Notes under the pieces: model-generated
Databases searched by the model: none
What the model was told of the DNA's origin: nothing
Seen by the model: only the letters and a program-made list of their open reading frames with translations
Assembly (NCBI GenBank): GCA_964501265.1
Contig: CAZCSK010000008.1
Span: forward strand, 387 to 64,386
Length of the DNA stretch: 64,000 bases
Reading direction: 5' to 3'
Source: an uncultured Actinomycetes bacterium
GTDB lineage: Bacteria > Actinomycetota > CADDZG01 > JAHWKV01
Made by a program: the position numbers and the translations under genes
Part shown: piece after piece, positions 3,630 to 63,740 of the stretch
Numbering within the stretch: the stretch's first letter is position 1
Layout of the letters: the number at the start of each line of letters is the position of its first letter

Positions 3630-3633
3630 CGCG

Positions 3634-23447: not shown

Positions 23448-23471
23448 GGCTGCTACCCCCCCGTACCCCCC
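23448..23471 (+). repeat. Palindromic repeat family, solo right-end fragment
   Basis: GGCTGCTACCCCCCCGTACCCCCCG. Confidence 0.6.
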
Positions 23472-23482
23472 GCTCTTCTTCA

Positions 23483-23549
23483 GGGGGTTCGCAGCTTCTG
23501 GCGCGCGCGGTTCCGTACGTAGGGGAGCTGCTACCCCCCCGAACCCCCC
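23483..23549 (+). repeat. Palindromic repeat family, full copy overlapping the 3' end (last 7 codons) of the sigma-factor gene
   Basis: GGGGGTTCGCAGCTTCTGGCGCGCGCGGTTCCGTACGTAGGGGAGCTGCTACCCCCCCGAACCCCCC. Confidence 0.85.
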
Positions 23550-45146: not shown

Positions 45147-46387
45147 TGCTTGCCAACGTCGCCGGCAAACGTATCGCCCTCGGAGTTTGCGGGGGCATCG
45201 CGGCATACAAAGTAGTCGAGGTGGCGCGGGAACTGACGCAAGCGGGGGCGGATGTTTGCGTCGTTATGTCGCCATCCGCAACCAACTTCGTCGGTGCTAT
45301 CACTTTTTCAACCTTGACCGCGAATCCGGTCCGTACGGATCTTTTTCCGGACGAAGCCCCATCCCAGATTCCCCACACCGACCTTGGCCGCACATCCGAC
45401 CTGGTTGTGATCGCTCCGGCCACGGCGAAAACGATGGCCAAATTCGCGCAAGGAATCTCAGACGACTTGATGTCGGCTCTGCTGCTTTCCGCCGCATGTC
45501 CAATTTTGATGGCGCCGGCGATGCACACCGAGATGTGGGAGAATGAGGCTACGCAGTCCAACATCGATACGCTGCGTGCGCGGGGAGTGACGTTCGTCGG
45601 CCCCGAGTCGGGGGCGCTTGCCGGGCCTGATGTGGGCGTCGGCAGGCTCGCCGAGCCCACCACGATTCTGCAGGCGATCGACGATGAGCTTCGCAAACGC
45701 GAGGAGTTGTCGGGAGTGAATGTGATCGTCACCGCTGGGGGCACGCAAGAGCCCATCGATGCGGTGCGGTTTATCGGCAATCGCTCGTCCGGGCTGATGG
45801 GATACGAAATTGCCCGAAGTGCAATAAGAAGGGGAGCAAAGGTAACGCTCATCACCGGGCCGAGTCATCTGACCCCGCCGGCAGCTGCGGAGGTGATCGC
45901 GATCAGCACCGCAGCCGAGATGCGCGACGCCGTCGCCGGGGTAGCCGATCGCGCCGAGGTCCTCATCATGGCCGCGGCGGTTTCCGATTGGGCACCTGTT
46001 GCACCGGCGGGCGGCAAGTTGAAGAAGGCCGAAGGCCCCCCACCGGTTGCCCTTGAGGCGACTGTCGACGTCCTGGCAGAGGTGGGCCAGATGCGGGCGG
46101 AGGGCCGCCTCCCAGGCCTGCGGGCGCTCGTGGGCTTCTGCGCAGAAACCTCGGACCTCCCCGCCCATGCCAAAGCGAAGCTCGCGTCCAAGCAAGCCGA
46201 TTTGATGATTGCGAACTTAGTTGGCCAACCCGACTCTGGATTCGACGCGCCCACCAACCAGGCAGTGATCTCCGATGCATTGGGCGCCGAAGAACTGCCG
46301 ATGATGCCAAAGCGGTTGCTCGCCGATTTGATTCTCGACCGAGTGGCCCGGTTGCTCCAGGCAGGCACCCCTTCAGATTCCAGGTGA
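45146..46387 (+). CDS. coaBC: Bifunctional phosphopantothenoylcysteine decarboxylase / phosphopantothenate-cysteine ligase
   Basis: N-terminal flavoprotein motif (GVCGGIAAYK, PAMHTEMW). C-terminal CoaB domain. Confidence 0.85.
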   Translation: MLANVAGKRIALGVCGGIAAYKVVEVARELTQAGADVCVVMSPSATNFVGAITFSTLTANPVRTDLFPDEAPSQIPHTDLGRTSDLVVIAPATAKTMAKFAQGISDDLMSALLLSAACPILMAPAMHTEMWENEATQSNIDTLRARGVTFVGPESGALAGPDVGVGRLAEPTTILQAIDDELRKREELSGVNVIVTAGGTQEPIDAVRFIGNRSSGLMGYEIARSAIRRGAKVTLITGPSHLTPPAAAEVIAISTAAEMRDAVAGVADRAEVLIMAAAVSDWAPVAPAGGKLKKAEGPPPVALEATVDVLAEVGQMRAEGRLPGLRALVGFCAETSDLPAHAKAKLASKQADLMIANLVGQPDSGFDAPTNQAVISDALGAEELPMMPKRLLADLILDRVARLLQAGTPSDSR

Positions 46388-46451
46388 AAGAGTCGATTAT
46401 CCAAGAGGGGCCTTGGTTCTCCGGTAGGCTAAAGGTTCTACTTGGGGGATT

Positions 46452-46475
46452 GGAATAGTCAGAATCGACTATTCC
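46452..46475. promoter_or_regulatory. Perfect 9-bp inverted repeat GGAATAGTC-N6-GACTATTCC between coaBC and flp
   Basis: Seen directly in the sequence. Could be an operator in the flp promoter region or the coaBC terminator stem (T-rich tract follows). Confidence 0.35.
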
Positions 46476-46549
46476 AAGTATCTCTTTTGCGGCCGCATTA
46501 TGTACTAAGGATTTGGATATGGCGTCAGGGACGCCGAAAGGGGACAGAA

Positions 46550-46756
46550 ATGGATTTGATCGAGCGAGTGGTGCTCGCGGTGTGCGGATTTGGTACCCAT
46601 TTGAGACAGCGTCTCGCCGCCGAAGAAGGTGCGACGGCAGTTGAGTATGGGCTCTTGGTAGCGCTGATAGCAGCCGTAATCATCGCGACTGTTGGTTTTT
46701 TGGGTACGGAAATAAATGATGCGTTCCAGACGATCCTAACCGAGTTGACTAACTGA
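46550..46756 (+). CDS. flp: Flp-family type IVb pilin
   Basis: Prepilin motif EEGATAVEYGLLVALIAAVI (G/A cleavage site, conserved EY). 68 aa. Confidence 0.8.
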   Translation: MDLIERVVLAVCGFGTHLRQRLAAEEGATAVEYGLLVALIAAVIIATVGFLGTEINDAFQTILTELTN

Positions 46757-46849
46757 CCTTTGCTACCACCTAGATTGGCAAAGTTGTTCTGAGAGGACGA
46801 TCGTGGCCACGACCCGGCGGCCGAAGCTCGGACGAACGTATTCGAAAGT

Positions 46850-48100
46850 GTGACAGCAAGGATGGGCACACCGCGCAGACATAAGTTGTTCTACAGCAGC
46901 CGCCTCGGCCGGGAAGAGGGCGCGACTGCCATCTTGATCGCGTTGTTGGCGCTCTTCGTGTTGCTGCCTTTGGCGGGCCTGAGTACTTCGTCATTCATAC
47001 GATCCGGCACCCAAGCCGAATTGAACCTCGCCGCAGACGCGGGAGCCCTCGCGGGCGCAGCCAATATCCCGATGGGAGACCTTGCGTTCGTCGTCACGTA
47101 TGTGAACAGCTTTGCTCAGGTTCGGGCGTGTCCCCCGCTCCCCTGTGACCAAGTGCCCCCCAACGACGCCATCGACCCGAACAACCCGAACGATGCAATC
47201 AATGAGCAGATTGAGATGATCCTCCCGGGCAAGCCAAATCCAATCACGATCGCTTGCGATCAGGCTGAGGCCGCTCTGGAAAGAAATGGCCGTCTCGGCG
47301 ACGCATTTGGAACGGAGGCTCCATTTTGTTCGGCGAATTATATCGTCGATCCCGATTTTCTGACGGCGTTCGGGGCCTGTGTCAATGTCATTGGAACCAA
47401 TCCGGTGGGCCCTGCATTGAAAGGCCTAGCAGACTCGCTCCCAGCTTTGCTGAAACCCGGGATTAGCGTGACATTCACCCGTCGCGTGGACCCCCCTCTG
47501 GAATCGTTGATCGGTGAGACCGATGTCCAACACCGGGTCACCTCCCATGCGCGACGCCGATTCAAAAATGCTGTCGTGGTGCCCGTGCTCCCTAGCATTC
47601 CCCCCACGTCCACAGTTATCGACTTAGACCCTTTCGTCACCCAAACCGTCACGGTCGACGTTCCCGGACAAGATCCTAACGTGATTCCCTTGAACGAGGT
47701 GGTCGGCCAAAGGCGTGAAGACGTGCTTGACCGAATTGACGCAATCGAGGACGCGATTGATGGCTACAACGACATGGTAGGTCCGCTCGGCACCCCGTTG
47801 CCTGATTTTCCTTCAGCCTGCCGCGGGGTTCTGCCCGCGCTTCGCGACGACTTCGTTGACGTGGCCAACCCACCCGAAGGGGAACCCTCCCCCCTGGAGA
47901 TAGTGGCACCATCACCCGCCACAGACCCCAACGCGTTGGTACTTCGACTCTTTGTGGGAACACCGTTCTTCGACTTTGTACCAGTCTGCGTGGCGGGATC
48001 GGGCGGTAATCTGGCTGGCCTTGCAGGGCCTACTGGCGCTGGCTGCACCGCTAACGCCCCTGGAGCATTCCGCGCGACTCTTGTGCGGCCCGATTCATGA
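46850..48100 (+). CDS. Tad pilus assembly protein, TadG-like (large pseudopilin)
   Basis: N-terminal TadE/G-like motif EEGATAILIALLALFVLLPLAGL followed by a ~370 aa domain. Confidence 0.6.
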   Translation: MTARMGTPRRHKLFYSSRLGREEGATAILIALLALFVLLPLAGLSTSSFIRSGTQAELNLAADAGALAGAANIPMGDLAFVVTYVNSFAQVRACPPLPCDQVPPNDAIDPNNPNDAINEQIEMILPGKPNPITIACDQAEAALERNGRLGDAFGTEAPFCSANYIVDPDFLTAFGACVNVIGTNPVGPALKGLADSLPALLKPGISVTFTRRVDPPLESLIGETDVQHRVTSHARRRFKNAVVVPVLPSIPPTSTVIDLDPFVTQTVTVDVPGQDPNVIPLNEVVGQRREDVLDRIDAIEDAIDGYNDMVGPLGTPLPDFPSACRGVLPALRDDFVDVANPPEGEPSPLEIVAPSPATDPNALVLRLFVGTPFFDFVPVCVAGSGGNLAGLAGPTGAGCTANAPGAFRATLVRPDS

Positions 48101-48546
48101 GGATTCGCCACTCCGAAAGAGGTACTGTTGCCCTGGAATTTGCCCTCCTCCTACCGGTGATCTTGCTCTTTATCGGGGCGCTGATGATCGCAGGGATGAG
48201 AGGTGTCTACTCGGCCCTCGCTCAGCACGAAGCACGCGTTGGGGCGCGTGAGGCCAGCATCAGGCTGGGCCAAGCATCCTCCGATCCTTATCCAACGCAA
48301 TTCCAGATCTGCGACTCTCCTAACCGTCTTCTGGCCTTTCCGGGTAGCGATTTCATCCAAGCCGAGTGCACGGTCTCGAACAGCTCCGCACCGACTGCCA
48401 GGGGGTTGGGTACGGGAGACATAGTCACGGTGACTCTTGTCTATCGACTCCCCGCAATCACCGCCCTGAGTGATTTTGTGGAAAACGCATTCAACGCCGG
48501 AGCCCTTGCCGTGGTGTCTCAGTCAGCATCGGTCATGCGGGAATGA
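48097..48546 (+). CDS. tadE: TadE-like pseudopilin
   Basis: ERGTVALEFALLLPVILLFIGALM, the TadE-family N-terminus. Confidence 0.65.
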   Translation: MRIRHSERGTVALEFALLLPVILLFIGALMIAGMRGVYSALAQHEARVGAREASIRLGQASSDPYPTQFQICDSPNRLLAFPGSDFIQAECTVSNSSAPTARGLGTGDIVTVTLVYRLPAITALSDFVENAFNAGALAVVSQSASVMRE

Positions 48547-49001
48547 CTCGGGCTCGACGGGAAGAAGATTCGGGCCTTGCGGCATTGGAGTTCCTCTTTG
48601 TTTATCTTCTGGTTTTCTCGCTCCTAGCCCTAAGCGTCCCCCTGGTTATCGCCATGCAAGAGCGCGTTCGCCTCGAACGGACGGCCGGGCACACAGCACG
48701 ATTTGCTACGGCGGCACCCGACCGTCCCCGTTTTGGTTCGGCTACAAGAAGGCCTTCAGTTGAAGATGTGGAGGCCGAGGCCTTTCGGGCGTATAGTCTG
48801 ATCGGCGCCTCGGATCCTGGGGCCAACTTTGATGTAGTTGTGGGCAATGATCCCAGAACGGCCCTTCCGGGCGATCAGATCACGATCACAATCATTAAGA
48901 CAGTCGACCTGGGGCTCATCGGAGCGCTGATGAATGTGATAGGCGTAACGCAGAGTTCAGATATTGAGATGACCGTCACCGCTGTGGGACGGCAGGAATA
49001 G
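48543..49001 (+). CDS. TadE/TadF-like pseudopilin
   Basis: DSGLAALEFLFVYLLVFSLLAL, a TadE-like N-terminus. Confidence 0.6.
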   Translation: MTRARREEDSGLAALEFLFVYLLVFSLLALSVPLVIAMQERVRLERTAGHTARFATAAPDRPRFGSATRRPSVEDVEAEAFRAYSLIGASDPGANFDVVVGNDPRTALPGDQITITIIKTVDLGLIGALMNVIGVTQSSDIEMTVTAVGRQE

Positions 49002-49008
49002 GGGAGAA

Positions 49009-49800
49009 ATGAGAAAACTCAGCGTCACCGTAGCGGTTGGTTTGATTGTTGCATTGGTCGGAGGTGGGTTGGTATTCGCATACGGCCGGAGTGTGGATCA
49101 AAGGATCGCGGACGGAAAGAAGACTGTGGATGTGCTTGTTGCGCTGAAAGCCCTGGCCGCCGGCACCCCCTCGATCGCGCTCGACAAAGACACCCAACTA
49201 AGAAAGATTCCGCAGGCCTATCTTCCTGAGGGCTTCATCAAGGATCTTAACGAGGTCGCCGGCCAGGTTCTTGTGGGGCCACTTCCTGCAGGCGCGAGTC
49301 TCAACCGTACGCATTTCGGATCCCCGGCAACAGTCGGCGCCGTGGAGCCGACGGAGGGGAACGTGGCCTTGGCTGTGCAGGTCGGCATCTCGCCTGGCGT
49401 CGCGCGTTATGTACGCGTTGGCAGTTTCGTCGATGTCTTCGTAACGTACTCGGGAACGGGAGGCGGGGTGGGGCTGGGTCAGCAGGGCAAGCCTTCTCAA
49501 TCGGAGAACCGCACCAAGCTGTTCGTGACCGGGGTCAAGGTGCTTGCGGTCTCGATAGCCGAACCTAGGGTTGAAGAGCAGACCGAAGGGGGCTCCGGCA
49601 ACCAAAACCGCCAGGCTCAAAGCCGGGAATCGGGATCAAGCCAAGTGATTGCCATCTTGGATGTTGACCCTATTACGGCTGAAAGAATAGTCAACGCCGT
49701 TTCGATCGGAGAACTGTATCTTGCGCTGTCCAAGCAGAACGCCGGCCACAAGACGCCAACCGGAGTGGTGCCGGACGATGTTGTTACCTCCAACAGGTGA
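49009..49800 (+). CDS. cpaB: Flp pilus assembly protein CpaB/RcpC
   Basis: N-terminal TM helix, SAF-like domain. Position ahead of cpaE/tadZ. Confidence 0.7.
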   Translation: MRKLSVTVAVGLIVALVGGGLVFAYGRSVDQRIADGKKTVDVLVALKALAAGTPSIALDKDTQLRKIPQAYLPEGFIKDLNEVAGQVLVGPLPAGASLNRTHFGSPATVGAVEPTEGNVALAVQVGISPGVARYVRVGSFVDVFVTYSGTGGGVGLGQQGKPSQSENRTKLFVTGVKVLAVSIAEPRVEEQTEGGSGNQNRQAQSRESGSSQVIAILDVDPITAERIVNAVSIGELYLALSKQNAGHKTPTGVVPDDVVTSNR

Positions 49801-51098
49801 TATCGCTTGGCGTCGTTGACCGCACGGGAGTCTTGCTTTCCGTAGCGGAGTCAGCTGCAAAGTCGGTTAGTCCAGAGATGCAAGTTCGATCTATGGGAGA
49901 GCCCACGGAATTGGGGCCTTCTTCGGGCCCCGCCGACATCCTTTTGCTGGGACCCGAAGAACTCACGCCCGCCGGAATACGGCGCTCCCAGTCGTGGCGC
50001 GCTCAGCATCCTGCCAGTCTTTTGATCGCAGTCGTCCCGAGAGGATCTCTAACCACAGCCGAGCTGGGGGGCCTCGGCGTCAATCACGTCATCCAAGGCA
50101 AATTCAGCGAGGCCAAGGCCGTCAAGACCCTCCTGCATGCGGTCGAACAACTCGATCGCCTCGCCCAGGAGGCAAGCGAGTGGCGATCTCTTGAGCAAGT
50201 CGAGGTGGAGGAGGTTGATGTTTCCGAATCCATCATCGAGGACGCTAAACAGCCCCGCGAGCCAGTCTTGGTTTCCATTGCCTCCCCTACCGGCGGCAGC
50301 GGCAAGACTTTCTACGCATGCAACCTGGCCGGGGCTTTGGCGGCGGTGGGCCTCAAGGTTTTAATCGTCGACCTCGATCTTCAATTTGGCGAGGTTGCCG
50401 TTGGTCTTCGTCTGCAACACCCGTATTCCATCTATGACGGACTCTACGACAGCAGGGGAACTCCGCTCCCGGTAGAGGCCCTGGCCGAGCATGTCGATGA
50501 ACTCGTGTGCCACCACGAATTGGGTTTCGATGTTCTCACCGCTCCCAAGAATCCAGAACTCGCCGATTACATCGGCGCTGCAGATGCGGCCCGCGTTTTA
50601 GACGTTGTTGTTCCGCGGTATGAGGTCATCATTGCTGATACACCCCCTTCGCTGAATGAGGTAGTTCTGACCGTCCTGGACCGGAGCGACCTTGTGGTTG
50701 TCCTTGCAACCCCAGATGTTCCTAGTCTTAAGAACCTGGGCGTGTTTCTCGACACACTTCACCGGCTCCAGGTCGTGGATAGCCACATCCAACTGATCCT
50801 AAACAAGGTGGAAAGTGACATTGGCCTGGACGTCAAGGAAATTCAGGGCGCTTTCTCAGATCGATTCGTGGGTTTCATTCCCCAATCCCGAATAGTGTCG
50901 CGGGCACTAAATACCGGAAAGCCGATAGTAGCTTTCGCGCCCCGCTCAGATGTTGGCGTCGAATTAATGAAGAGCTTCGCCGCCGTATTTCCGTCCGAGG
51001 CGCTTCGCATGAAGGCACCCAAGATCGCAGGGAAGAAAAAGTCTTGGAACCCATTCGCCAGATGGCGGCGTAAGATCGGAACGAAAGGAGTGCTATGA
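49797..51098 (+). CDS. cpaE: Pilus assembly protein CpaE/TadZ (receiver-like + ParA/MinD-type ATPase)
   Basis: Deviant Walker A SPTGGSGKT and MinD-like fold following an N-terminal receiver-like domain. Confidence 0.75.
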   Translation: MISLGVVDRTGVLLSVAESAAKSVSPEMQVRSMGEPTELGPSSGPADILLLGPEELTPAGIRRSQSWRAQHPASLLIAVVPRGSLTTAELGGLGVNHVIQGKFSEAKAVKTLLHAVEQLDRLAQEASEWRSLEQVEVEEVDVSESIIEDAKQPREPVLVSIASPTGGSGKTFYACNLAGALAAVGLKVLIVDLDLQFGEVAVGLRLQHPYSIYDGLYDSRGTPLPVEALAEHVDELVCHHELGFDVLTAPKNPELADYIGAADAARVLDVVVPRYEVIIADTPPSLNEVVLTVLDRSDLVVVLATPDVPSLKNLGVFLDTLHRLQVVDSHIQLILNKVESDIGLDVKEIQGAFSDRFVGFIPQSRIVSRALNTGKPIVAFAPRSDVGVELMKSFAAVFPSEALRMKAPKIAGKKKSWNPFARWRRKIGTKGVL

Positions 51099-52504
51099 AA
51101 CTTTCTGAGAGACTGACTCGCGAGAAGGAAAAGGAAGCCAAACCCAAGAAGAACTCCGGTCTCAAGCAAAAGGATGCTATTAAACTGACCCCGGCTGCCG
51201 GTCAGGCCTCTCCCATGACTGGACGGCGTTCGGCTGATTCGGGGGATATGGATGGCCTGAAGGCCCGGCTTAGAACCGCTGTGGTGGCCGAGTTGGGCCC
51301 ACGTCTTTCGCGGGGCGCCGTTGATGAGTCGACGCTCCGGCAGCGTGTCACGGTCCACCTCGACGATCTCATTCGTCAGTCGCGCGTCACCATTGGTCCG
51401 CAAGAGCGACATTCCTTCATGGAATCGCTGTTGGCGGACATGTTGGGCTGGGGTCCCCTCGAGACGCTCATGGCCGACCCCGACGTAACGGAAGTGATGT
51501 GTAATTCCTACGACGAGGTGTGGATCGAGCGCAACGGGAGAATCGAACCGACGGAAGTCAAGTTTCCCAACCCCGGCGCGTATCGTCAGGTGATCGATCG
51601 CATGCTTGCAAGCGTCGGACGCCGCATCGACGAGGCATCGCCTATGGCCGATGGTCGTCTTCCCGACGGCAGTCGCATCAACGCGATCATTCCTCCGCTC
51701 GCGACGCGGGCCCCCGTCCTAACGGTGCGAAGGTTTCGCGAGGTGCCGTACACGGTTGCAGACATGATCACCATGGAGTCGATCTCCGCTGATGCAGCGG
51801 TATTCATAGAGGCCGCCGTTCGCTCCAAAATCAACATGCTGATCAGCGGCGGATCGGGTTCGGGGAAAACGACGCTTCTAAACGTTGTTTCATCTTTTAT
51901 TCCCGACACCGAGCGCGTCGTTACAATCGAAGATGCCGCGGAGTTGCGACTTGGGCAGCCACACGTGGTTGCGCTCGAGGCTCGCCCACCCAATATCGAA
52001 GGCGCGGGCCAGGTGACAATTCGAGATCTTGTTCGCAACTCCCTGCGGATGAGGCCGGACCGAATCATCGTGGGAGAGGTTCGTGGGGCGGAGGCCCTGG
52101 ACATGCTCCAAGCGATGAACACGGGTCACGAGGGTTCGATAACCACCGTCCATGCCAACTCCCCTCGCGACGCCTTGGCCCGTGTCGAAACGATGACTCT
52201 CATGGCGGGGATTGAACTGCCGCTCCGGGCCGTGAGAGATCAGGTCGCCAGCGCTCTGGAACTTCTTTTGCACCTCGAGCGTCTGCCGACGGGCCAAAGA
52301 GTCCTTTCCAGCATTACCGAGATTCAAGGCCGTGAGGGCGAGACCATCACTTTGCAGGAGGTATTTACACGACGAGGCAAACTCCTGGAGGCAACGGGTC
52401 TGCGGCCGAAAGTCGCCGAGAAAATCGCTGAGCGCGGCGGTACGTTGCCGAGCACGATCTTTCGGGGCAGAGCCTCATCCGCGGTTGCAAGAAGGGCCAG
52501 ATAG
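51095..52504 (+). CDS. cpaF: Tad pilus secretion ATPase CpaF/TadA
   Basis: Walker A GGSGSGKTT, Asp/His boxes, and TadA-like N-terminus. Confidence 0.85.
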   Translation: MKLSERLTREKEKEAKPKKNSGLKQKDAIKLTPAAGQASPMTGRRSADSGDMDGLKARLRTAVVAELGPRLSRGAVDESTLRQRVTVHLDDLIRQSRVTIGPQERHSFMESLLADMLGWGPLETLMADPDVTEVMCNSYDEVWIERNGRIEPTEVKFPNPGAYRQVIDRMLASVGRRIDEASPMADGRLPDGSRINAIIPPLATRAPVLTVRRFREVPYTVADMITMESISADAAVFIEAAVRSKINMLISGGSGSGKTTLLNVVSSFIPDTERVVTIEDAAELRLGQPHVVALEARPPNIEGAGQVTIRDLVRNSLRMRPDRIIVGEVRGAEALDMLQAMNTGHEGSITTVHANSPRDALARVETMTLMAGIELPLRAVRDQVASALELLLHLERLPTGQRVLSSITEIQGREGETITLQEVFTRRGKLLEATGLRPKVAEKIAERGGTLPSTIFRGRASSAVARRAR

Positions 52505-52510
52505 AAAACG

Positions 52511-53467
52511 ATGAGCGCGCTCGCTGGGGTTCTGGTCACGGCCGGCCTATTCGGAATGTGGCTGGCGCAGGGCCTGAAGCAGCGCCGCCGCGTGTCCAAC
52601 CTGAAGGTTCTTCTCGAATCTGCCTATATGGAACAGGCCGGCACCGCCGAGCATCAGTCCGCAGACATCCAAAAGCTCCTTGCAAGGACCGGCCTTGCCG
52701 CCGAGTATCTTTTTGCGAGGGCGAGTTTTTTCCAAAAGTTGAAGTCCAAGATCGAGAGAAGCAATTGGACCGTCACTGCCGGTGAGTTTTTGGCGGTCTC
52801 GGCGCTGCTCGGGGCCGTAGGCGCTTTTATAGGATTCCTCGGGACGTCGTCGCCGTTGGCGGTACTGCTTGCGGTCGTTGGGGCTGCGTCTCCTTACATA
52901 TTCGTAAGCCGCGCGATCGCAAGCCGCAGGTCAAGATTCGAAGGTCAGTTGCCAGAGGTTCTGGACCTCATGGCCGCGAGTCTGGAATCGGGGGCGGGAG
53001 TACCTCAGGCCCTGGAACTGGTGGTGGCCGAAGCAGACAACCCGTCGGCTGAGGAGTTCGCAAGGGTGCTGTCGGCCACGCGCCTCGGCAATCCCATTGT
53101 CGAGGCACTGAAAGTCATGTCCGAAAGGCTTGAATCGCGCGATCTGAACTGGACCATTCAGGCGATCATCGTGCAGCAACGCACCGGCGGCAAACTTGCC
53201 GACGTCCTTCGCATCGTTGCCGGTTTCATGCGGGGAAGAGAGGAAGTCAAACGCGAACTGGCAGCGCTCACAGCAGAAGGGAAGCTTTCGGCGTTCATCC
53301 TGGGTGGTCTTCCTTTCGGTCTCGCGATATTCCTTTTGATCGTAAATCCGGATTATCTAACTCCGCTTTTTACAACGGCGATCGGAATTGCAATGCTTGT
53401 GATCACCGGAACTCTCATGCTCATCGGCTTCTTCATCATGTCAAGGATCATCAAGATTGATGTCTGA
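52511..53467 (+). CDS. tadB: Tad pilus platform protein TadB (T2SS-F family)
   Basis: GspF-like membrane domain. Confidence 0.75.
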   Translation: MSALAGVLVTAGLFGMWLAQGLKQRRRVSNLKVLLESAYMEQAGTAEHQSADIQKLLARTGLAAEYLFARASFFQKLKSKIERSNWTVTAGEFLAVSALLGAVGAFIGFLGTSSPLAVLLAVVGAASPYIFVSRAIASRRSRFEGQLPEVLDLMAASLESGAGVPQALELVVAEADNPSAEEFARVLSATRLGNPIVEALKVMSERLESRDLNWTIQAIIVQQRTGGKLADVLRIVAGFMRGREEVKRELAALTAEGKLSAFILGGLPFGLAIFLLIVNPDYLTPLFTTAIGIAMLVITGTLMLIGFFIMSRIIKIDV

Positions 53468-54365
53468 AATTGTAATTCTGTCGGGACTGCTTTTCGGCGC
53501 TGGGGCCGGTCTTGTGGGATTCGTCTTGGCGCGTACCCGACAGGTCGTCACGGCCGCTCCGACGCATATCGAACTGGCTCTCGGGGAACGGGCGATCCAG
53601 GAAGAGACTCCGCAAGTTGGCTTTGCGTACCGCATTGTGGAACCCCTCCTGAAGGTCGCTGCCCGGATAGTGAGACGGCTTTCTCCAGTCAAAAGAATCG
53701 ATTTGATTCGCCGGCGACTCACATACGCCGGCATGGAGGCGACAATGTCGGTCGAAGGGATACTCGCGTACAAGGCCGCAAGCGCGGTCGCTGGCTTCCT
53801 CTTCGGTTTCGTCTTTAATCCGGGCCGAATTCCGGCCCTGGCCTGGGGGATCATCCTCGCCTTTCTAGCCTCCTTTGTGCCCGACATCATCCTTGACTCA
53901 AGGGCGAAGGCCCGGCAGGGCGAGATTGCGCGGGACCTTCCCGAAGCCCTCGACCTGGTCGCTATCACGGTCGAAGCTGGACTTGGATTGGAACAAGCTC
54001 TGGAGATTGTCACAGAGAACATGAAAGGCCCGTTCGCGCAAGAACTGTCGCGCCTTCTGCGAGAGATCGAGCTTGGCGTCCCGCGCCGGGTCGCGCTAAA
54101 CGGGCTTCGGGACCGTACCGACGTGTCCGAGCTGTCCGCCTTCATCGTGGCCCTGATCCAGGCCGACATCATGGGGATGGCGATCGCTCAGGTACTAAAA
54201 ATCCAGGCTGAGCAAGTCCGCCTTAAGAGACGACAAAGGGCCCGCGAGCAGGCCGCGAAGACTCCCGTCAAGATCTTGTTTCCCCTGATCTTCGGTATCT
54301 TCCCAGCTATCTTCACCGTCACCATCGGCCCCGGAATAATCAACATCATCGACGCCCTGTTCTAA
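53457..54365 (+). CDS. tadC: Tad pilus platform protein TadC (T2SS-F family)
   Basis: Second GspF-like membrane protein directly after tadB. Confidence 0.75.
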   Translation: MMSEIVILSGLLFGAGAGLVGFVLARTRQVVTAAPTHIELALGERAIQEETPQVGFAYRIVEPLLKVAARIVRRLSPVKRIDLIRRRLTYAGMEATMSVEGILAYKAASAVAGFLFGFVFNPGRIPALAWGIILAFLASFVPDIILDSRAKARQGEIARDLPEALDLVAITVEAGLGLEQALEIVTENMKGPFAQELSRLLREIELGVPRRVALNGLRDRTDVSELSAFIVALIQADIMGMAIAQVLKIQAEQVRLKRRQRAREQAAKTPVKILFPLIFGIFPAIFTVTIGPGIINIIDALF

Positions 54366-54431
54366 TCGCTGAACATGCATGAGCGCCCGCCTATAATCGG
54401 GCAACCTCCCATCTAGGCCAAGGAGCCCGTA

Positions 54432-55637
54432 ATGAAACGCCGCTATCTGTTCACGTCTGAGTCCGTCACGGAGGGTCACCCCGACAAACTGGCTGACCGG
54501 ATTTCCGACGCGATCCTCGATGCGTTGATCACGCAAGACCCGAACTCACGTGTGGCTTGCGAAACGCTTGTTACAACTGGGCAGGCGATCGTCGCCGGCG
54601 AGATCTCTACAGAGACCTACATCGACATAAGAAGTGTAGTGCGCGAGGCGATCAAGGAAGTGGGATACACGGACGCCAAGAGCGGATTCGACGGCGACAC
54701 TTGCGGTGTACTCGTCGCCATTCAGGAGCAGTCTCCCGACATCGCCATGGGCGTGGAGCATGCACTCGAGGAGCGGGAGGGCGGATCCGACGAACTCGAT
54801 CGCCTCGGCGCGGGTGACCAGGGCATGATGTTCGGCTACGCCTCACGCGAGGGCGGGCTCGAGACCGAACTGATGCCCGCCCCCATCTGGCTCGCGCATC
54901 GCCTGGCCCAACGGCTTGCCGAGGAACGGCGCAACGGCGAGATGCCCTACCTTCGGCCCGACGGCAAGACCCAGGTGACTGTCGTCTACGAGGACGACGT
55001 GCCCGTCGGCATCGATACGATCGTGATATCCGCACAGCATCAGCCCGAAGTAGACATCGAATCGCTCTTATCCCCGGATTTGATGGAACACGTCGTGAAG
55101 CCCGTCGTTCCCGAGGAGCTTTGGTCCGACAAGATCCGCTTTCTGGTCAACCCCACCGGCCGCTTTGAGATCGGTGGGCCGACGGGCGACACGGGCCTAA
55201 CGGGCCGAAAGATCATCGTCGACTCTTACGGTGGTATGTGCAGTCAGGGAGGCGGCTGCTTCTCAGGCAAGGACCCAACGAAGGTGGATCGATCGGGTGC
55301 ATACATGGCGCGCTACGTCGCCAAGAACCTCGTTGCCTCGGGCCTTGTCGAACGATGCGAAGTGCGAATCGCGTACGCCATCGGCGTGGCTCATCCCGTT
55401 TCGGTGAATATCGATGATCGCGGCACCGCCAAGGTAGATCCCGAGAAGTTGGAGGCTCTGGTTGCCGAACAATTTGACTTCCGCCCCGCGGCGATAATCA
55501 GACAGCTCGACCTTCTTCGTCCAATCTACAAAGAGTTGAGCGCTTATGGCCACTTCGGCCGAATCGACAAAGAGCGCTTCACCTGGGAGCGCACCGACCG
55601 GGCCGAAGAACTGGCCAAACTGGCCCGGGACCTATAA
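54432..55637 (+). CDS. metK: S-adenosylmethionine synthetase
   Basis: [25 protein letters not shown], and full-length MetK similarity. Confidence 0.9.
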
Positions 55638-55639
55638 CC

Positions 55640-57466
55640 GGTATAGTCGGCCCGCTCACTGCCGAGGTAATAGTCGACGTCTCCGCGTGGGGGCTCGATC
55701 GTACGCTGACATATGAGATCCCTGAAAAACTCATCGGCAAACTGGTCATCGGGTCCATAGTCCGGGTTCCGCTGCGCGGCCGTCGAACACGAGGGTGGGT
55801 CGTCGCGCTCGACGCGAGTCAGAGTCTGTCGGAGGATCTGTCACCGATTGCGTCGGTGAGTGGGCGCGGTCCGGTGTTCGATGAGGCGCTGCTTGCGATG
55901 GCACGCCGACTTGCGCGTCGCTACGTCCATCCCTTATCGACCTTTCTTTCCCTGTTCACTCCGCCGCGTCTGCAGCGCGGAGCGTTTGACGCTCCTGCGC
56001 CGCAGTTACACACCGGACCGCTACACGTTACAGTGATGCGCCCGAGCCTTCGTGGTGACATCGTCGAACGCTACTCTGCCGAGATCTCCGCCGGCCTGGA
56101 CAAGGGCAAGGGGACGATCGTAGCGGTTCCCGAAGTGCGAGAGGGCTCGCGGGTTCTTGAATCACTCGCCGCGAAGTTCCCGAACGACATTGCAATAGTT
56201 CACAGCGGCCTCGACGATGCCGAACGCTCACGCAACATTTGGAATGTGGCTACCGGGAAGGCAAAGGTGGTGCTGGGTGGACGGGCCTCACTTTTCGTTC
56301 CGCCGCTGCACCTCGGCAATATCATCATTCACGATGAGGACGATAGATCTTTCAAGGATCAACGAACCCCCTACTACGACGCGCGCGAAGTAGCGATCGA
56401 AAGGGCCAGGTTCACGGGTGCTTCCGTGCTGCTGGTGAGTCGCACTCCTTCATTGACAAGCATGCACGAATCAAGCTGGGAGTTGGAGGAACCCGATCGC
56501 ACGACCGAGCGCGCCGCCTGGCCAATCGTCGAGGTTGTGAGGCCACCGAGAACCGGAATGGCTCGCCGCGCAATTGCCGCAATAATCGAAACCCGAAGGC
56601 GCGGGCAGCAATCCCTGGTGCTTTTGCCTCGCGCTCACAGCACGAAAGCGGGCCTTGGGCCGGAGGCCGTGGTGGCATTTCTCGAACGCGTCGTCCCTGG
56701 AGCCCGAATAAGCAGGGCCGATCGCCCCGCCCTGGGCCAGCGTCCCGGAGCCCTTGTGGAGGCACTGAAGGCAGATGTCATCGTTGCAACTGAGGCTGCG
56801 CTTGCCGAGGTGCAGCGGCCGCCCGTCTCTCTAGCGGTCGCCCTGGGGGTTGACACTTATTTTCAACGTCCGAGCCTTGGCGCGGCGGAGGACACGTTCA
56901 GCATTCTTTACAGCCTCGCGACGCTGGTCGCCGGCATTCAGCCCAAAGGACGGCTTGTCGTGGAAACTGAAAGCTCAGACCACCATGTCATCCAGGCACT
57001 GGTACGCGGCGACTATCGATACTTCGCCTCCCACGAACTGGAAGTTCGTAAGGAGTCTTCAAATCCGCCGTTTGTCTCGCTGGTCCGCTTGCGGACTAAC
57101 TCAGCACTAGTCGACCTCGGGGGGGTAGCAGCTTCTAGCGCGCGGGGGTCCGTACGTAAGGGGGCTGCTACCCCCCCGAACCCCCCACTTGATTTCGGGG
57201 GGTTCGCAGCTTCTGGCGCGCGCGGTTCCGCACGTAGGGGGGCTGCTACCCCCCCGAACCCCCCTACCTTGGAAGGTAAGGATTTGATGGAACAGTTGCG
57301 CGGTCTGCCGGGCGTAGAAGTGCTCGGCCCCATTGAGGGCGAAGGGGGAGGGGCCGAGATTCTGCTCAAGGTTACTGACCTCGAACCGATCCTCGACCAA
57401 TTGGGTAGCATCGTATCGCTCCACAAGGGCGACATCCACGTAGAGATGGATCCAAGGCAATGGTGA
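55640..57466 (+). CDS. priA: Primosomal protein PriA homologue with degenerate Walker A and two tandem repeat-derived insertions; start codon uncertain
   Basis: N-terminal VDVSAWGLDRTLTYEIPE... and DEDD/HDED box are present. The expected GxGKT is replaced by TVMRPSLRGD. The frame is open from 55640, but the first ATG is at 55856. Confidence 0.7.
   Translation, partial: GIVGPLTAEVIVDVSAWGLDRTLTYEIPEKLIGKLVIGSIVRVPLRGRRTRGWVVALDASQSLSEDLSPIASVSGRGPVFDEALLAMARRLARRYVHPLSTFLSLFTPPRLQRGAFDAPAPQLHTGPLHVTVMRPSLRGDIVERYSAEISAGLDKGKGTIVAVPEVREGSRVLESLAAKFPNDIAIVHSGLDDAERSRNIWNVATGKAKVVLGGRASLFVPPLHLGNIIIHDEDDRSFKDQRTPYYDAREVAIERARFTGASVLLVSRTPSLTSMHESSWELEEPDRTTERAAWPIVEVVRPPRTGMARRAIAAIIETRRRGQQSLVLLPRAHSTKAGLGPEAVVAFLERVVPGARISRADRPALGQRPGALVEALKADVIVATEAALAEVQRPPVSLAVALGVDTYFQRPSLGAAEDTFSILYSLATLVAGIQPKGRLVVETESSDHHVIQALVRGDYRYFASHELEVRKESSNPPFVSLVRLRTNSALVDLGGVAASSARGSVRKGAATPPNPPLDFGGFAASGARGSARRGAATPPNPPTLEGKDLMEQLRGLPGVEVLGPIEGEGGGAEILLKVTDLEPILDQLGSIVSLHKGDIHVEMDPRQW
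57119..57186 (+). repeat. Palindromic repeat family, first of two tandem copies in frame inside priA
   Basis: GGGGGGGTAGCAGCTTCTAGCGCGCGGGGGTCCGTACGTAAGGGGGCTGCTACCCCCCCGAACCCCCC. Confidence 0.85.
57197..57264 (+). repeat. Palindromic repeat family, second tandem copy in frame inside priA (closest to consensus)
   Basis: GGGGGGTTCGCAGCTTCTGGCGCGCGCGGTTCCGCACGTAGGGGGGCTGCTACCCCCCCGAACCCCCC. Copy-to-copy offset is 78 bp (26 codons). Confidence 0.85.
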
Positions 57467-57467
57467 G

Positions 57468-57986
57468 ATGACGACGTTTACGATTCGACTCTTCGGCGAC
57501 CCCGTCTTACGCCAGCGCGCTGCCGAGGTCGCGGAGGTCGACGATTCTGTCCGCAAGTTAATACGCGACTTAACCGACACAATGCCGGCTTCGGGCCTCG
57601 GTCTTGCCGCGCCCCAGATTGGCATTACGCGCAGGGTCTTCGTTTGGAAAAACGAAGACGACACCGGAGCTCTCGCCAACCCGCGCTTGCTGGAATCGTC
57701 AGGTGAAGTCGAATCCGACGAAGGGTGCCTATCACTGCCGGGCTTAAGTTTTCCAGTTCGAAGAGCGCAGTGGGTTCGTGTCGAGGGGCTCAACGAGTCT
57801 GACCAAAGGGTCGTTCTAGAGGCAACCGACTTGACTGCGCGCATCTTTCAGCACGAAATCGATCACCTCGATGGCGTGCTATTCATCGACCATCTGCCCA
57901 GAGACCTGCAACGCGAGGCACGACGGATGTTGCGCGAACAAATGCTGAGTGGGATGGCGCAAACCACGAGTCCCGGCGGACTCTAA
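57468..57986 (+). CDS. def: Peptide deformylase
   Basis: Motifs GLGLAAPQIG, EGCLS, HEIDHLDG. Confidence 0.9.
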   Translation: MTTFTIRLFGDPVLRQRAAEVAEVDDSVRKLIRDLTDTMPASGLGLAAPQIGITRRVFVWKNEDDTGALANPRLLESSGEVESDEGCLSLPGLSFPVRRAQWVRVEGLNESDQRVVLEATDLTARIFQHEIDHLDGVLFIDHLPRDLQREARRMLREQMLSGMAQTTSPGGL

Positions 57987-58006
57987 ACGCTATCCAGGGG
58001 CGGGGC

Positions 58007-58960
58007 GTGAGAATCGTGTTCTTCGGGACGCCCGAAGCAGCCGTTCCCATACTTGAGTCGCTCACCGCTCATCATGAAGTGGTTGCCGTCGTAACCGCTC
58101 CCGACCGGCCACGAGGACGCGGCCTTGAGGTTGCAGGATCTCCGATCAAGCAAGCAGCGATGGAGGCCGGAATCGATGTCTTTCAGCCGCCAACGCTACG
58201 ACGTGGGCAGCTACCGGCTTGGCCCGAAGCCGATATCTTCGTGGTGGCGGCCTATGGGTTGATTCTTCCCCTCCATGTCCTTTTGCTACCGCCGCGGGGC
58301 TGCCTTAACGTTCATTTCTCCTTGCTTCCCAAACTCAGAGGCGCAGCGCCCGTTCAATGGGCCCTGATCCAGGGGTTGGAACATTCCGGAGTCACGATCA
58401 TGCAAATGGACGAAGGACTCGACACTGGTCCGATCCTCGCGCAGGTCAAAGAGGCGATCACAACGGATGACACCGCGGGGAGTTTGGAGATGCGCCTCGC
58501 GCACACCGGGGCCAACCTGCTCATGGAGACCTTGCAGTCGGTGGAGGCCGGGACCTCGACGCCGGTGCCGCAGAATCACTCCCAGGCGACTCTAGCCCCC
58601 AGCCTCAAACCATCCGATGCCCGCATCGCCTGGGCGCAAACGGCTAACGAAATCTCTAACCGTGTCCGAGCCTTCAACCCAAAACCCGGGGCCTGGACCA
58701 TGTTGGGGAACAGGCGTGTGAAAATTTATCGGGCCACGGGGCGTCAATCCGCGACGCCGGGCAAGCCGGGTGAGATTTTCGTTCCACCGAAAGGTGATCA
58801 TCCACCGAAAGGTGATCATGGGGCCGATGAGATGCTTGTCGTCTGCGGAAGTGGGGGAGTTCTCGTGATCAGCGAGTTACAACTTGAGGGGAAGGACCGA
58901 CTACCAGCGAGCCAATTTTTAAGAGGAGTCCGAATCGAAAGCGGTGAGTGTTTCGAATGA
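58007..58960 (+). CDS. fmt: Methionyl-tRNA formyltransferase (contains an 18-bp tandem duplication, PPKGDH x2)
   Basis: IVFFGTPEAAVP, HFSLLPKLRGAAP. Confidence 0.85.
   Translation: MRIVFFGTPEAAVPILESLTAHHEVVAVVTAPDRPRGRGLEVAGSPIKQAAMEAGIDVFQPPTLRRGQLPAWPEADIFVVAAYGLILPLHVLLLPPRGCLNVHFSLLPKLRGAAPVQWALIQGLEHSGVTIMQMDEGLDTGPILAQVKEAITTDDTAGSLEMRLAHTGANLLMETLQSVEAGTSTPVPQNHSQATLAPSLKPSDARIAWAQTANEISNRVRAFNPKPGAWTMLGNRRVKIYRATGRQSATPGKPGEIFVPPKGDHPPKGDHGADEMLVVCGSGGVLVISELQLEGKDRLPASQFLRGVRIESGECFE
58784..58819 (+). repeat. Perfect 18-bp tandem duplication inside fmt
   Basis: CCACCGAAAGGTGATCAT x2, encoding PPKGDH-PPKGDH. Confidence 0.8.
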
Positions 58961-60539: not shown

Positions 60540-60559
60540 CGCTCATGGTGCATACTCTT

Positions 60560-60695
60560 TGTAAGAAGTCTTCGGGGCACGGTGAAATTCCGGACCGGCG
60601 GTCATAGCCCGCGAACCTCTCGATAACGAGGGGCCGACCCGGCTTTATTCCGGGGCCGACAGTTACAGACTGGATGGGAGAAGACTTTTGGCGGC
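60560..60695 (+). promoter_or_regulatory. FMN riboswitch (RFN element) upstream of ribD
   Basis: Conserved RFN segments CTTCGGGGCACGGTGAAATTCCGGACCGGCGGT, AGCCCGCGAAC, CCGGGGCCGACAGTTACAGACTGGATGGGAGAAGAC. A GC hairpin follows. Confidence 0.8.
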
Positions 60696-62433: not shown

Positions 62434-63740
62434 CTTTTGCTACCGTCGAAGAAGCCGTCGAAGAACTTCGTCTTGGCCGAATGATCATCGTAGTCGACGA
62501 TGAGAGCCGCGAGAACGAAGGCGATTTCGTCATGGCGGCTGAGACTGTCACGCCCGAGACGATCAACTTCATGGCCCGCGAGGCGGGTGTTCCGATCTGT
62601 GTGCCCATGACTAAGTCCAGGCTTGACGAATTGGGCCTGCCCATGATGGTGTCGGAGAACACATCGCCGCACGGCACGGCCTTCACGGTGTCCGTTGACA
62701 TTAAGATTGCAGGCCACACAGGATCCAGCGCCTTCGACCGGGCCGCAACGATTCGCGCTCTTGCCGATCCCGCCAGTCTCGCATCAGACTTCGTCCGCCC
62801 TGGACATGTCTTCCCGCTGCGCGTGGCGCAAGGTGGAGTATTAAAGAGGTGGGGCCACACCGAAGCCGCCGCCGATCTCGCCACGCTCGCCGGCTTCGCG
62901 CCCGTAGGAGTTGTCGCTGAGATCATGGATTCGAATGGCGAAATGGCGCGCCTTCAACAGCTCCAAGAGCTCGCCAATCGCCACGGATTGAAGGTACTAA
63001 TGATCAAGGACTTGATTGCCTACAGAAGTCACCGAGAGAAATTGATCGAGCGAGTTGCATCGGCCACAATGCCCACCGGGTTCGGCGACTTCACGTGTAT
63101 CGCCTACCAGTCCAAGATCGATGGACAGGAGTATGTTGCCTTCGTCAAGGGCGAGGTCGCGGGGCAGAAGGATGTTCTGGTGCGGGTGCACTCACAATGT
63201 CTCACTGGAGATGTTTTTCAGTCCGCCCGGTGCGACTGCGGCTATCAGTTGCGCGAGGCGATGCGGCTGATCGATGCAGAAGGGCAGGGAGTTGTCCTCT
63301 ACATCATGGCGCACGAGGGTCGCGGTATCGGACTCATGCACAAGATTCGGGCTTACAAACTTCAGGAGGAGGGCCTCGATACGGTGGAAGCAAACGAGCA
63401 GTTGGGCTTTGCTGCCGATCAGCGCGATTACGGGATTGGGGCGCAGGTGCTTGCCGATTTGGGAATCACATCCATGCGTCTTCTCACTAACAGCCCCCAG
63501 AAGTACGCCGGGGTCGAGGGCTATGGCTTGTCGATCACAGAGCGCGTTCCACTTCAAAGCACGGCCACGGAGCAGAACATTGCGTATCTTCGGACCAAGC
63601 GCGACCGCCTCGGGCACTTCCTCGAAGGCTTGGATGAGACAGCTGCGGACGACCTCTCGGGGGGGTTCGGGGGGGTAGCAGCGGCCAACGGAGACGACTT
63701 GAGCGCGCCAGAAACTGCGAACCCCCCGAAGTCAACTTGA
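62430..63740 (+). CDS. ribBA: Bifunctional DHBP synthase / GTP cyclohydrolase II; C-terminal ~24 aa from a reverse-oriented repeat copy
   Basis: DHBP synthase N-half (DENRENEGDF). GCH-II C-half with CxCGYQ zinc site. Confidence 0.9.
   Translation: MTFATVEEAVEELRLGRMIIVVDDESRENEGDFVMAAETVTPETINFMAREAGVPICVPMTKSRLDELGLPMMVSENTSPHGTAFTVSVDIKIAGHTGSSAFDRAATIRALADPASLASDFVRPGHVFPLRVAQGGVLKRWGHTEAAADLATLAGFAPVGVVAEIMDSNGEMARLQQLQELANRHGLKVLMIKDLIAYRSHREKLIERVASATMPTGFGDFTCIAYQSKIDGQEYVAFVKGEVAGQKDVLVRVHSQCLTGDVFQSARCDCGYQLREAMRLIDAEGQGVVLYIMAHEGRGIGLMHKIRAYKLQEEGLDTVEANEQLGFAADQRDYGIGAQVLADLGITSMRLLTNSPQKYAGVEGYGLSITERVPLQSTATEQNIAYLRTKRDRLGHFLEGLDETAADDLSGGFGGVAAANGDDLSAPETANPPKST
63659..63727 (-). 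repeat. Palindromic repeat family, 69-bp copy in reverse orientation forming the ribBA C-terminal tail
   Basis: GGGGGGGTTCGGGGGGGTAGCAGCGGCCAACGGAGACGACTTGAGCGCGCCAGAAACTGCGAACCCCCC. Ends match the reverse complement of the canonical ends; the core has diverged. Confidence 0.8.

Follow-up and report, generated by a model that had tools for sequence, protein, structure and literature searches.

An in-frame palindromic repeat dimer in a reduced PriA-like protein, probably a pseudohelicase, with a putative metK-coupled start in an uncultured Actinomycetes bacterium

The window analysed here, a stretch of 64,000 nucleotides (nt) from an uncultured Actinomycetes bacterium (GenBank assembly GCA_964501265.1, contig CAZCSK010000008.1, positions 387 to 64,386 of the forward strand), carries on its plus strand a block of metK, a priA-like open reading frame (ORF), def and fmt (54432-58960). 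The priA-like gene contains two head-to-tail copies of a 78-nt palindromic repeat, its product has lost helicase motifs of PriA, and no canonical start codon precedes its conserved N-terminus. We consider it probable that these observations belong together as a palindromic dimer inserted in frame, a PriA pseudohelicase and a non-canonical start coupled to metK. An independent assembly, ENA contig k141_1867108 (L001), is ~89% identical to the window and encodes the orthologous product P0002. The features of the locus, in window positions, are as follows.

54432-55637, plus strand: metK, S-adenosylmethionine synthetase (three Pfam S-AdoMet synthetase domains, E 1e-43 to 1e-63)
55634-55636, plus strand: ATA, the best candidate start of priA (predicted), in the priA frame and overlapping the metK stop (ctATAAcc); conserved in L001
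55635-55637, plus strand: metK stop codon TAA, overlapped by this first candidate priA start
55640-57466, plus strand: priA-like ORF, 608 codons as read here, true 5' end undefined
55664-55963, plus strand: PriA 3' DNA-binding domain, residues 9-108 (Pfam PF17764 PriA_3primeBD, E 7.8e-19, profile positions 1-96 of 96)
56042-56065, plus strand: equivalent of Walker A (motif I), PSLRGDIV against E. coli GVTGSGKT in the alignment to 6dcr and 8fak
56330-56344, plus strand: equivalent of Walker B (motif II), H-D-E-D-D against E. coli D-E-E-H-D
57077-57463, plus strand: PriA C-terminal domain with a β-α-β-β-α-β layout, its β1-α1 loop interrupted by the insert
57109-57186, plus strand: element unit 1, 78 nt, 5' boundary uncertain by ~3 nt, 5' arm a perfect complement of the 3' arm
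57187-57264, plus strand: element unit 2, 78 nt, near the family consensus, matching the copy at 23472-23549 at 70 of 78 positions
57468-57986, plus strand: def, peptide deformylase (Pfam PF01327, E 5e-44), start 2 nt downstream of the priA stop, same operon

Tandem Repeats Finder placed the repeat in priA at 57117-57264, with a period of 78 nt, 1.9 copies, 90% matches, no indels and a score of 247, and a repeat search returned two 70-nt copies 78 nt apart, each with inverted arms of 16-17 nt. The unit amounts to 26 codons, and both copies share the reading frame of priA. A first-pass annotation had described a tandem double insertion of a genome-wide repeat with in-frame copies exactly 26 codons apart, and this description held: the spacing is exact, and the 23-mer GCTGCTACCCCCCCGAACCCCCC, which forms the 3' arm of the element, has eight matches in the window at ≤3 mismatches against none expected from shuffles. 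Together with the 8-nt leader of the element, the inserted block (~57109-57264) measures 156 nt. The ~50 added residues of that annotation are indeed an insertion, and the exact figure, leader included, is 52 codons.

The 5' arm of unit 1, GGGGGGGTAGCAGC (57117-57132), departs from the family consensus GGGGGGTTCGCAGC (57195-57210 in unit 2) by exactly those changes that make it a perfect complement of its own 3' arm, which suggests templated repair or conversion within the element. The change strengthens the RNA hairpin of unit 1 from approximately -42 to -52 kcal/mol (z -5.0), and the dimer as a whole folds at -99.7 kcal/mol (z -5.05). Every copy of the element also has runs of G6-7 and C6-7, for example at 57119-57125 and 57170-57176, which are thereby brought into coding sequence, and the length of the 5' G-run differs among copies from G5 to G7. 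Such homopolymer tracts are prone to slippage and could lead to frameshifts in host genes.

The dimer occupies exactly the same priA site in the window and in L001, which makes the insertion older than the split of these two genomes (synonymous substitution rate, dS, ~0.32). A head-to-tail dimer of a mobile element would thus have entered priA in frame at a time when the lineages of the window genome and its 89%-identical relative had not yet separated. These two are the only carriers among the 83 aligned members of the clade: the other 81 orthologues lack the whole 52-residue block, closing the gap with 3-5 residues, and orthologues at 44-57% identity miss it entirely. None of the 56 repeat-bearing metagenome loci described below is a priA locus, all being matches to the repeat peptide only, so the history of the insert rests on just two genomes. 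Within L001, the two units are identical over the 70-nt body and agree at 73 of 78 positions overall; the units of the window agree at 67 of 78, and orthologous pairs at only 64-65 of 78. This pattern points to conversion or re-duplication, by which the copies would be kept alike.

AlphaFold2, supplied with the 83-sequence alignment, returned a mean predicted local distance difference test score (pLDDT) of 87.9 and a predicted template modelling score (pTM) of 0.87, and the sole segment with pLDDT below 50 was residues 494-542, the insert. The predicted secondary structure around it runs from a strand at 480-486 through the insert to a helix at 544-554, strands at 559-566 and 572-578, a helix at 582-594 and a strand at 599-603, and query residue 486 aligns with E. 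coli residue 641. According to the model and the alignment, the insert lies in the β1-α1 loop within the C-terminal domain, and not strictly at the boundary between the helicase core and that domain, where it had been placed at first. Fifty-two disordered residues in this loop would leave the fold undisturbed; a unit of whole codons, a stop-free frame with a Gly/Ala/Pro-rich peptide and a landing place at the protein surface would together account for the survival of the insert.

Selection on the insert differs from that on the rest of the gene. Against L001, the ratio of non-synonymous to synonymous substitution rates (dN/dS) is 0.135 upstream of the insert and 0.106 downstream, with 0.13 for the whole gene outside the insert, whereas the insert itself has a value of 1.85 (20.2 non-synonymous and 4.8 synonymous differences), which is based on ~25 substitutions and which gene conversion may distort. 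The conserved positions of the insert are those of the nucleotide arms and not of the peptide centre, and the peptide would not be under selection at the protein level. Our conclusion is that selfish DNA has contributed a disordered loop, which the protein tolerates. It could instead have been co-opted as a flexible Gly/Ala/Pro-rich tether with PPNPP motifs, acquiring a new interaction or spacing role, which would agree with its retention in frame in both genomes over the divergence given above, with the use of the same peptide frame in carB, acyl-CoA carboxylase and DnaE, and with the contacts of the E. coli C-terminal domain to the leading-strand duplex and the lagging-strand single-stranded DNA (PMC10175261). 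We find co-option improbable, given that the insert is absent from 81 of the 83 clade members, evolves at a dN/dS far above its flanks, is modelled with low pLDDT and conserves its nucleotide arms, and that unrelated proteins contain the element in both orientations and in three different frames.

The tolerance of the selfish insert reflects its landing place and not an inactivity of PriA, because CarB and DnaE, which are catalytically intact, carry in-frame members of the same family at their domain boundaries. The earlier proposal that a degenerate P-loop had allowed the expansion did not stand up to this comparison; the degenerate P-loop is a trait of all 83 clade sequences, and the element is found in CarB and DnaE as well.

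The element belongs to a multi-copy, GC-rich palindromic family that resembles a miniature inverted-repeat transposable element (MITE) or a Rickettsia palindromic element (RPE). Its consensus reads yTGAyT-TCrGGGGGTyCGCAGCTTCTGGCGCGC-(variable)-GCTGCTACCCCCCCGAACCCCCC, with termini GGGGGGTTCG and CGAACCCCCC that form perfect 10-nt inverted repeats, arms of 16 nt, and a leader, yTGAyTTC, that is apparently part of the unit. The window holds the following copies besides those in priA.

15905-15982, plus strand: copy in the C-terminal tail of chorismate synthase (aroC), frame +1, SGDSQLLA...LPPRTPP
23449-23549, plus strand: partial copy and then a full one (78 nt between their 3' ends), which overlap a minus-strand sigma-70 factor gene at its 3' end
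38686-38763, plus strand: copy in carB, in frame between the second ATP-grasp domain and the MGS domain
63660-63737, minus strand: copy in the C-terminal tail of ribBA, reverse orientation, GGFGGVAA...ANPPK; also present in L001

The in-frame hosts in the window are accordingly priA, aroC, carB and ribBA, with the sigma-70 factor carrying a copy in frame at its extreme C-terminus. A 17-nt remnant of the 3' end of the element, ACCCCCCCGAACCCCCC on the minus strand, lies within carB at 37298-37320 (minus strand) and encodes GGFGGV; this second position in CarB is upstream of the oligomerisation domain, and the remnant may go back to an older insertion that has decayed, or match by chance.

A scan of JGI metagenomes for the exact 19-mer core of the element yielded 56 contigs, on which three subfamilies share the termini and have inner stems of GCAGC/GCTGC, GCTCGC/GCGAGC and GCCGCC/GGCGGC. 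Head-to-tail dimers or trimers with a 75-78-nt period occur on six contigs (L032, L038, L067, L075, L063 and L023) and at 23449/23527 in the window; doubling is a habit of the family and not peculiar to priA. In each orientation, one frame has no stop codon and encodes a Gly/Ala/Pro-rich peptide (FGGFAASGA...GAATPPNPP and GGFGGVAA...PEAANPPK), and a third frame is also used (SGGSQLLA...LPPRTPP). Metagenome hosts comprised DnaE, at two inter-domain sites (L056), the α subunit of acyl-CoA carboxylase, in the linker that joins its biotin carboxylase and biotinyl domains (L074), and an Lhr helicase that was recognised by eye from its translation and not via Pfam (L072). Copies sit between Pfam domains or in C-terminal tails, with Pfam confirming seven host genes (all but Lhr), and ORFs of at least 150 residues extend across 27 of the 29 copies in subfamily A, a crude count inflated by spurious GC-rich ORFs. 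The dnaE gene of L056 (Ga0183260_10001933, 758-4180) contains two full in-frame copies in opposite orientations together with a probable remnant ('ataanppkst'), all of them between Pfam domains. A filled site and its empty counterpart, which speak for mobility of the element, were also recovered: an 82-nt element block in L001 (10727-10806) corresponds to 'CTCA' at 60541-60545 in the window, between a GGDEF response-regulator gene and a flavin mononucleotide (FMN) riboswitch.

A role at the RNA level is compatible with the selfish-element reading and does not exclude it. In the metK-priA-def-fmt operon, the very stable hairpin could impede ribosomes, shield the mRNA upstream of it from 3' exonucleases, or separate the expression of priA from that of def-fmt, and the folding energies of the dimer and of unit 1 alone, the 3'-terminal copies in aroC, ribBA and the sigma factor gene, and the conservation of the arms around a variable loop are in line with such a role. 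We nevertheless regard it as unlikely: several other copies of the family fold no better than shuffled sequence (z -0.7 to -1.9), many lie deep in long ORFs (DnaE, Lhr, carB), where a 3'-end role is implausible, and no T-tract accompanies the hairpins. A scan of 54300-58100 detected no terminator-like site, so the element hairpins do not look like intrinsic terminators; a promoter-like site was predicted upstream of metK (54370-54397). Rfam gave no match at the metK-priA junction or at the repeat.

The product of the ORF resembles PriA throughout. NCBIfam PriA models matched it at E 1e-64 to 1e-47, all below their equivalog cut-offs (TIGR00595, 162.5 bits against 230.35; the best model, NF004066, 217.8 against 813), and the best-scoring model was of the PRK05580 type. 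A phmmer search of PDB chains found E. coli and Klebsiella PriA (E 7e-33 to about 1e-32). Foldseek ranked 8fak_H first (E 1e-33, TM 0.77), followed by 6dcr and 4nl4; all top matches were PriA, and the next family, Mfd, appeared at E 1e-11. Pfam recognised only the 3' DNA-binding domain, and the AlphaFold model and Foldseek indicate that the overall fold is kept, with two RecA-like lobes and the C-terminal domain.

The phmmer alignment pairs E143-R-Y of the query with E232-V-Y of E. coli, which places PSLRGDIV against GVTGSGKT. The absence of a GxGKT P-loop, claimed in the first-pass annotation, is borne out, as no GK[ST] occurs anywhere in the protein; the region that it had named, TVMRPSLRGD, is the right one, and its register is shifted by ~3 residues. 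The HDED box that it had taken as retained is not, since H-D-E-D stands opposite D-E-E-H and the Walker B aspartate is replaced. Motif VI reads LATLVAGI against QVAGRAGR in E. coli. The winged-helix domain is not present, with ~20 query residues (123-143) spanning E. coli 115-232, and neither is the Cys-rich region with its four CxxC zinc ligand pairs, E. coli 411-482 having no counterpart where the query passes from residue 320 to 332. The window protein contains no cysteine.

These losses extend across the clade. A profile search of 1.84 billion representative proteins showed a sharp drop in score, with clade members at 511 bits or above and everything else at 286 bits or below, save a few short fragments. 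The same architecture is found in all 83 sequences, many residues being invariant, and the metK-priA-def-fmt order is conserved among relatives. None of the 83 has a P-loop; the Walker A position follows L-[WR]-R-L-G-P-G-E-D-P-x-x-R-Y, in which R134, D140 and Y145 are conserved. At Walker B the pattern is H-[QSA]-E-[HD]-D (clade consensus HQEH), with Q, S, A or D as residue 232. The clade as a whole has likewise lost Walker B, motif VI, the winged-helix domain and the Cys-rich region, and the proteins contain 0-5 cysteines each. Of the 137 sequences that follow in rank, 125 retain an intact P-loop together with the Cys-rich region. In a few longer proteins, such as P0148 (670 residues; best NCBIfam model PRK14873), the Cys-rich region is present and the P-loop is not, while P0155 and P0172 lack both; at the Walker A position, P0148 and P0155 have 'WRP-x-PGED/AGED', like the window clade. 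PriA proteins without a winged helix that are otherwise intact also exist (645-690 residues, Walker A at around residue 155). Judging from these sequences, the loss of Walker A appears older and broader than the clade, and the loss of the Cys-rich region an additional reduction.

Whole-gene dN/dS against L001 is 0.18: the gene is under purifying selection and is not decaying. A pseudogene, in which motif loss, the missing start and the repeats would all reflect relaxed selection, might be suspected from the degenerate Walker A and B motifs, the lack of a canonical start, the NCBIfam scores under their cut-offs and the truncated NCBI product of 530 residues. This explanation is largely refuted, and we give it next to no credence, as the frame is open for more than 608 codons, dN/dS is low overall and in the start-less region described below, the model is predicted with high pLDDT, and both the architecture and the gene order are kept. 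The protein is instead most likely a pseudohelicase scaffold, as for Deinococcus PriA, and the ATPase-inactive scaffold proposed in the first-pass annotation is the most economical reading of its motifs. In this uncultured Actinomycetota clade, what is left of PriA would be the 3' DNA-binding domain, a pair of RecA-like folds and the C-terminal domain; by analogy with the biochemistry of D. radiodurans PriA and the genetics of E. coli priA300, we infer that it would act as an ATP-independent scaffold for fork recognition and helicase loading.

The beginning of priA is unusual in its own right. No in-frame ATG, GTG or TTG occurs from well inside metK to GTG 55856, codon 73 as read here, so that the earlier observation of no such codon between the metK stop and the conserved N-terminus extends to that point. 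The 3' DNA-binding domain lies entirely upstream of, or straddles, this first canonical codon, and a start at GTG 55856 would remove most of it. The 74 codons upstream of GTG 55856 have a dS of 0.35 and a dN/dS of 0.12 (16.5 synonymous and 6.5 non-synonymous differences), which clearly speaks for translation of this N-terminal region. In most orthologues, an ATG, GTG or TTG stands at the motif M-[LIV]-[AV]-x-V-[IV]-V-D, the window having CTC 55655 at this place, and in one (L012) the start is five codons later.

That the missing start is a sequencing or assembly artefact, or that the true start is GTG 55856 or 55874 and the protein lacks its 3' DNA-binding domain, is very unlikely in our view. 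The NCBI and ENA gene callers did pick downstream starts, giving P0001 (530 residues, NCBI) and P0002 (547 residues). The independent assembly L001, however, has the same start-less junction, its only length difference there being a 9-nt in-frame indel, and nine further orthologues from different samples also lack a canonical start; the low dN/dS upstream and the full-length Pfam match of the 3' DNA-binding domain oppose a downstream start. Because the start is non-canonical, gene callers systematically truncate priA: the 3' DNA-binding domain is missing from P0001, from P0002 and from each of the five further short calls examined. Other short priA calls in the match list may share this truncation, and a metK-coupled-start rule would correct them. 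The 9-nt indel itself, CGGTATAGT at 55640-55648 in the window relative to L001, lies just after the metK stop, and the similarity of its extra sequence GGTATAGTCGG to GGTAATAGTCGA further downstream (55666-55677) gives the impression of a partial duplication of the putative initiation region.

Among 17 unselected species-representative loci, four lack a canonical start (L013, L014, L015 and L019) and 13 have ordinary separate starts. In five further loci (L077-L081), the conserved N-terminus follows in frame right after the metK stop with no canonical start. Nine of the 11 start-less loci have a near-cognate codon that overlaps the metK stop or lies 0-1 codon from it; five of the 11 (L077-L081) were chosen for their N-terminally short gene calls, which weakens the pattern. 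The codon is ATA overlapping TAA or TAG in the window, L001 and L081, CTG overlapping TGA in L080, CTG one nucleotide after the stop (stop-N-CTG) in L013, L077 and L078, CTG directly after the stop in L019 and ACG directly after it in L079. Canonical-start loci with differing frames have a near-cognate codon at the stop in one of six cases.

Translation of priA from the frame of metK, by frameshifting or by read-through of the stop codon at the metK end, would yield a MetK-PriA fusion. The priA frame is open back into metK, from ~55478 in the window and similarly in several orthologues, and in L019 and L079 metK and priA share a frame and are separated solely by the stop codon. Since the start-less loci have frame relationships of 0, +1 and +2, no single recoding event fits them; no slippery heptamer was apparent by eye, and the 13 unselected orthologues with separate starts are at odds with a fusion. 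We attach very little probability to it. The start pattern rather suggests, from the placement of these codons, translational coupling by termination-reinitiation at a near-cognate codon, from which low PriA output would follow, in keeping with the earlier suggestion of a non-canonical or metK-coupled start. In the window, translation of priA would most likely begin at the ATA that overlaps the metK TAA, through reinitiation after metK has been terminated. More tentatively, and with decidedly less confidence, the clade may combine a minimal ATP-independent PriA scaffold with reinitiation at whichever near-cognate codon happens to lie at the metK stop, which would tie the amount of PriA to the expression of S-adenosylmethionine synthetase.

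Several further observations weigh against this joint interpretation. At the junction, no convincing Shine-Dalgarno sequence was found; the other candidate codons are ATA 55643, which is not in L001, and ATA 55670, whose preceding GAGG (55664-55667) is only 2 nt upstream and too close. L014 has no near-cognate codon beside the metK stop, and the near-cognate pattern could partly be a product of the conserved MetK C-terminus (..DL*). As to the protein, the loss of ATPase activity is read from motifs, and a non-canonical nucleotide site may exist; H231, E233 and D235 are invariant across the 83 sequences and are thus conserved for some reason. As to the element, no target-site duplication was consistent across copies and none was clean at the filled and empty site, and no RAYT, partner transposase or parent insertion sequence came up, although no transposase-directed search was made.

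Other features of the window were noted alongside. The metK-priA junction was considered as an RNA element on grounds of DNA conservation and rejected: it contains a 74-nt perfect run, but runs of 98 and 89 nt occur within def. Within fmt, a perfect 18-nt tandem repeat, TCCACCGAAAGGTGATCA, is present in 2.1 copies at 58783-58819 (plus strand), doubling the peptide PPKGDH close to the C-terminal domain of the encoded methionyl-tRNA formyltransferase. The FMN riboswitch (60564-60689, plus strand; Rfam RF00050, 110 bits, E 1e-24), upstream of a ribD-ribE-ribBA-ribH operon, is the sole Rfam match at the gathering threshold in the window. An imperfect tandem repeat of 15/30 nt, ACTCAGCCAGCTCCA, spans 26699-26764 with ~4 copies and 76-81% matches. 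A block of ~8 kb (46350-54385) that includes Tad-like pilus or secretion genes is present in the window and absent from L001, which is otherwise collinear and ~90% identical, where positions 4503/4575 join window positions 46349/54386 on either side of it; this difference may be a recent insertion or deletion.

Overall, the combination is of moderate specialist interest, chiefly for the extreme reduction of PriA and the recurrent loss of its canonical start. If the interpretation is correct, the pseudohelicase idea, demonstrated only for Deinococcus PriA, would extend to a far more reduced protein without P-loop, DExH box, arginine-finger motif, winged helix or the zinc-binding region that serves as wedge and PriB dock. 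The minimal PriA kept by evolution would then comprise the 3' DNA-binding and C-terminal domains, with the RecA-like lobes serving as a scaffold, which is relevant to the reloading of DnaB in bacteria that have no PriB, PriC, DnaT or DnaC. Similarly, the colonisation of coding regions in the manner of RPEs would not be confined to reduced intracellular genomes.

The closest precedent for the protein is PriA of D. radiodurans, for which DNA binding and an interaction with DnaB were demonstrated although it has neither ATPase nor helicase activity (Lopper et al. 2015, PMC4504706). Like it, the window protein is a PriA orthologue that is evidently still functional despite its degenerate motifs I and II. 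In Deinococcus-Thermus PriA, the lysine of GKT is changed to arginine and motifs I and II match poorly, whereas in the window protein the entire P-loop is replaced (GPGEDP in the clade). Unlike in Deinococcus, the Walker B aspartate of the window clade has become an invariant histidine, and motif VI, the winged helix and the Cys-rich region are gone; the clade is known from sequence alone. E. coli priA300 (K230R) cells behave nearly as wild type (PMC5778457), and the E. coli Cys-rich region is both the unwinding wedge and the docking site of PriB (PMC10175261).

Actinobacterial PriA has been called 'smaller and very divergent' by Rocha et al. (PMC1193525). Mycobacteria have no PriB, PriC, DnaT or DnaC, and PriA of M. 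tuberculosis (Rv1402) is essential (PMC5694481). In the literature on actinobacterial PriA motifs, we found the remark of Rocha et al. and statements of essentiality, and no biochemical study. Two related sequences with PRK14873 as their best NCBIfam models, P0148 and P0155, share with the window clade the 'PGED' replacement of the P-loop; the window clade differs in being ~100 residues shorter (~550 residues) and in lacking the Cys-rich region that P0148 and P0139 keep. UniProt reportedly flags mycobacterial PriA as having no detectable helicase domains.

The insert is most readily compared with the RPEs of Ogata et al., described in the summary given in PMC10969869 as short palindromic elements lying in frame in unrelated genes. 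The window element likewise is a short multi-copy palindrome of frame-compatible length with at least one stop-free frame, sits in frame in unrelated housekeeping genes at positions compatible with the fold, and encodes a family-specific peptide. It differs in length (78 nt against ~150 bp), in its extreme GC-richness with G6-7 and C6-7 runs, in commonly forming head-to-tail dimers and occurring in both orientations, and in its hosts, which are free-living soil or sediment Actinomycetota and not an obligate intracellular alphaproteobacterium; no sequence relationship is expected. With REP/BIME, Correia/NEMIS, ERIC and MITE-like families it shares short multi-copy palindromes, terminal inverted repeats, clustering and conversion. 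These families are mostly extragenic, whereas a large share of the examined copies of the window family lie within conserved ORFs.

At the metK-priA junction, the arrangement resembles ATGA and TAATG coupling in that the upstream stop overlaps or abuts the downstream candidate codon, with no convincing Shine-Dalgarno sequence. The difference lies in the restart codon, which would be near-cognate (ATA, CTG or ACG) and recurs across the clade for the metK-priA pair. Each component of the locus, then, has a precedent, in Rickettsia palindromic elements, in the Deinococcus pseudohelicase and in coupled translation.

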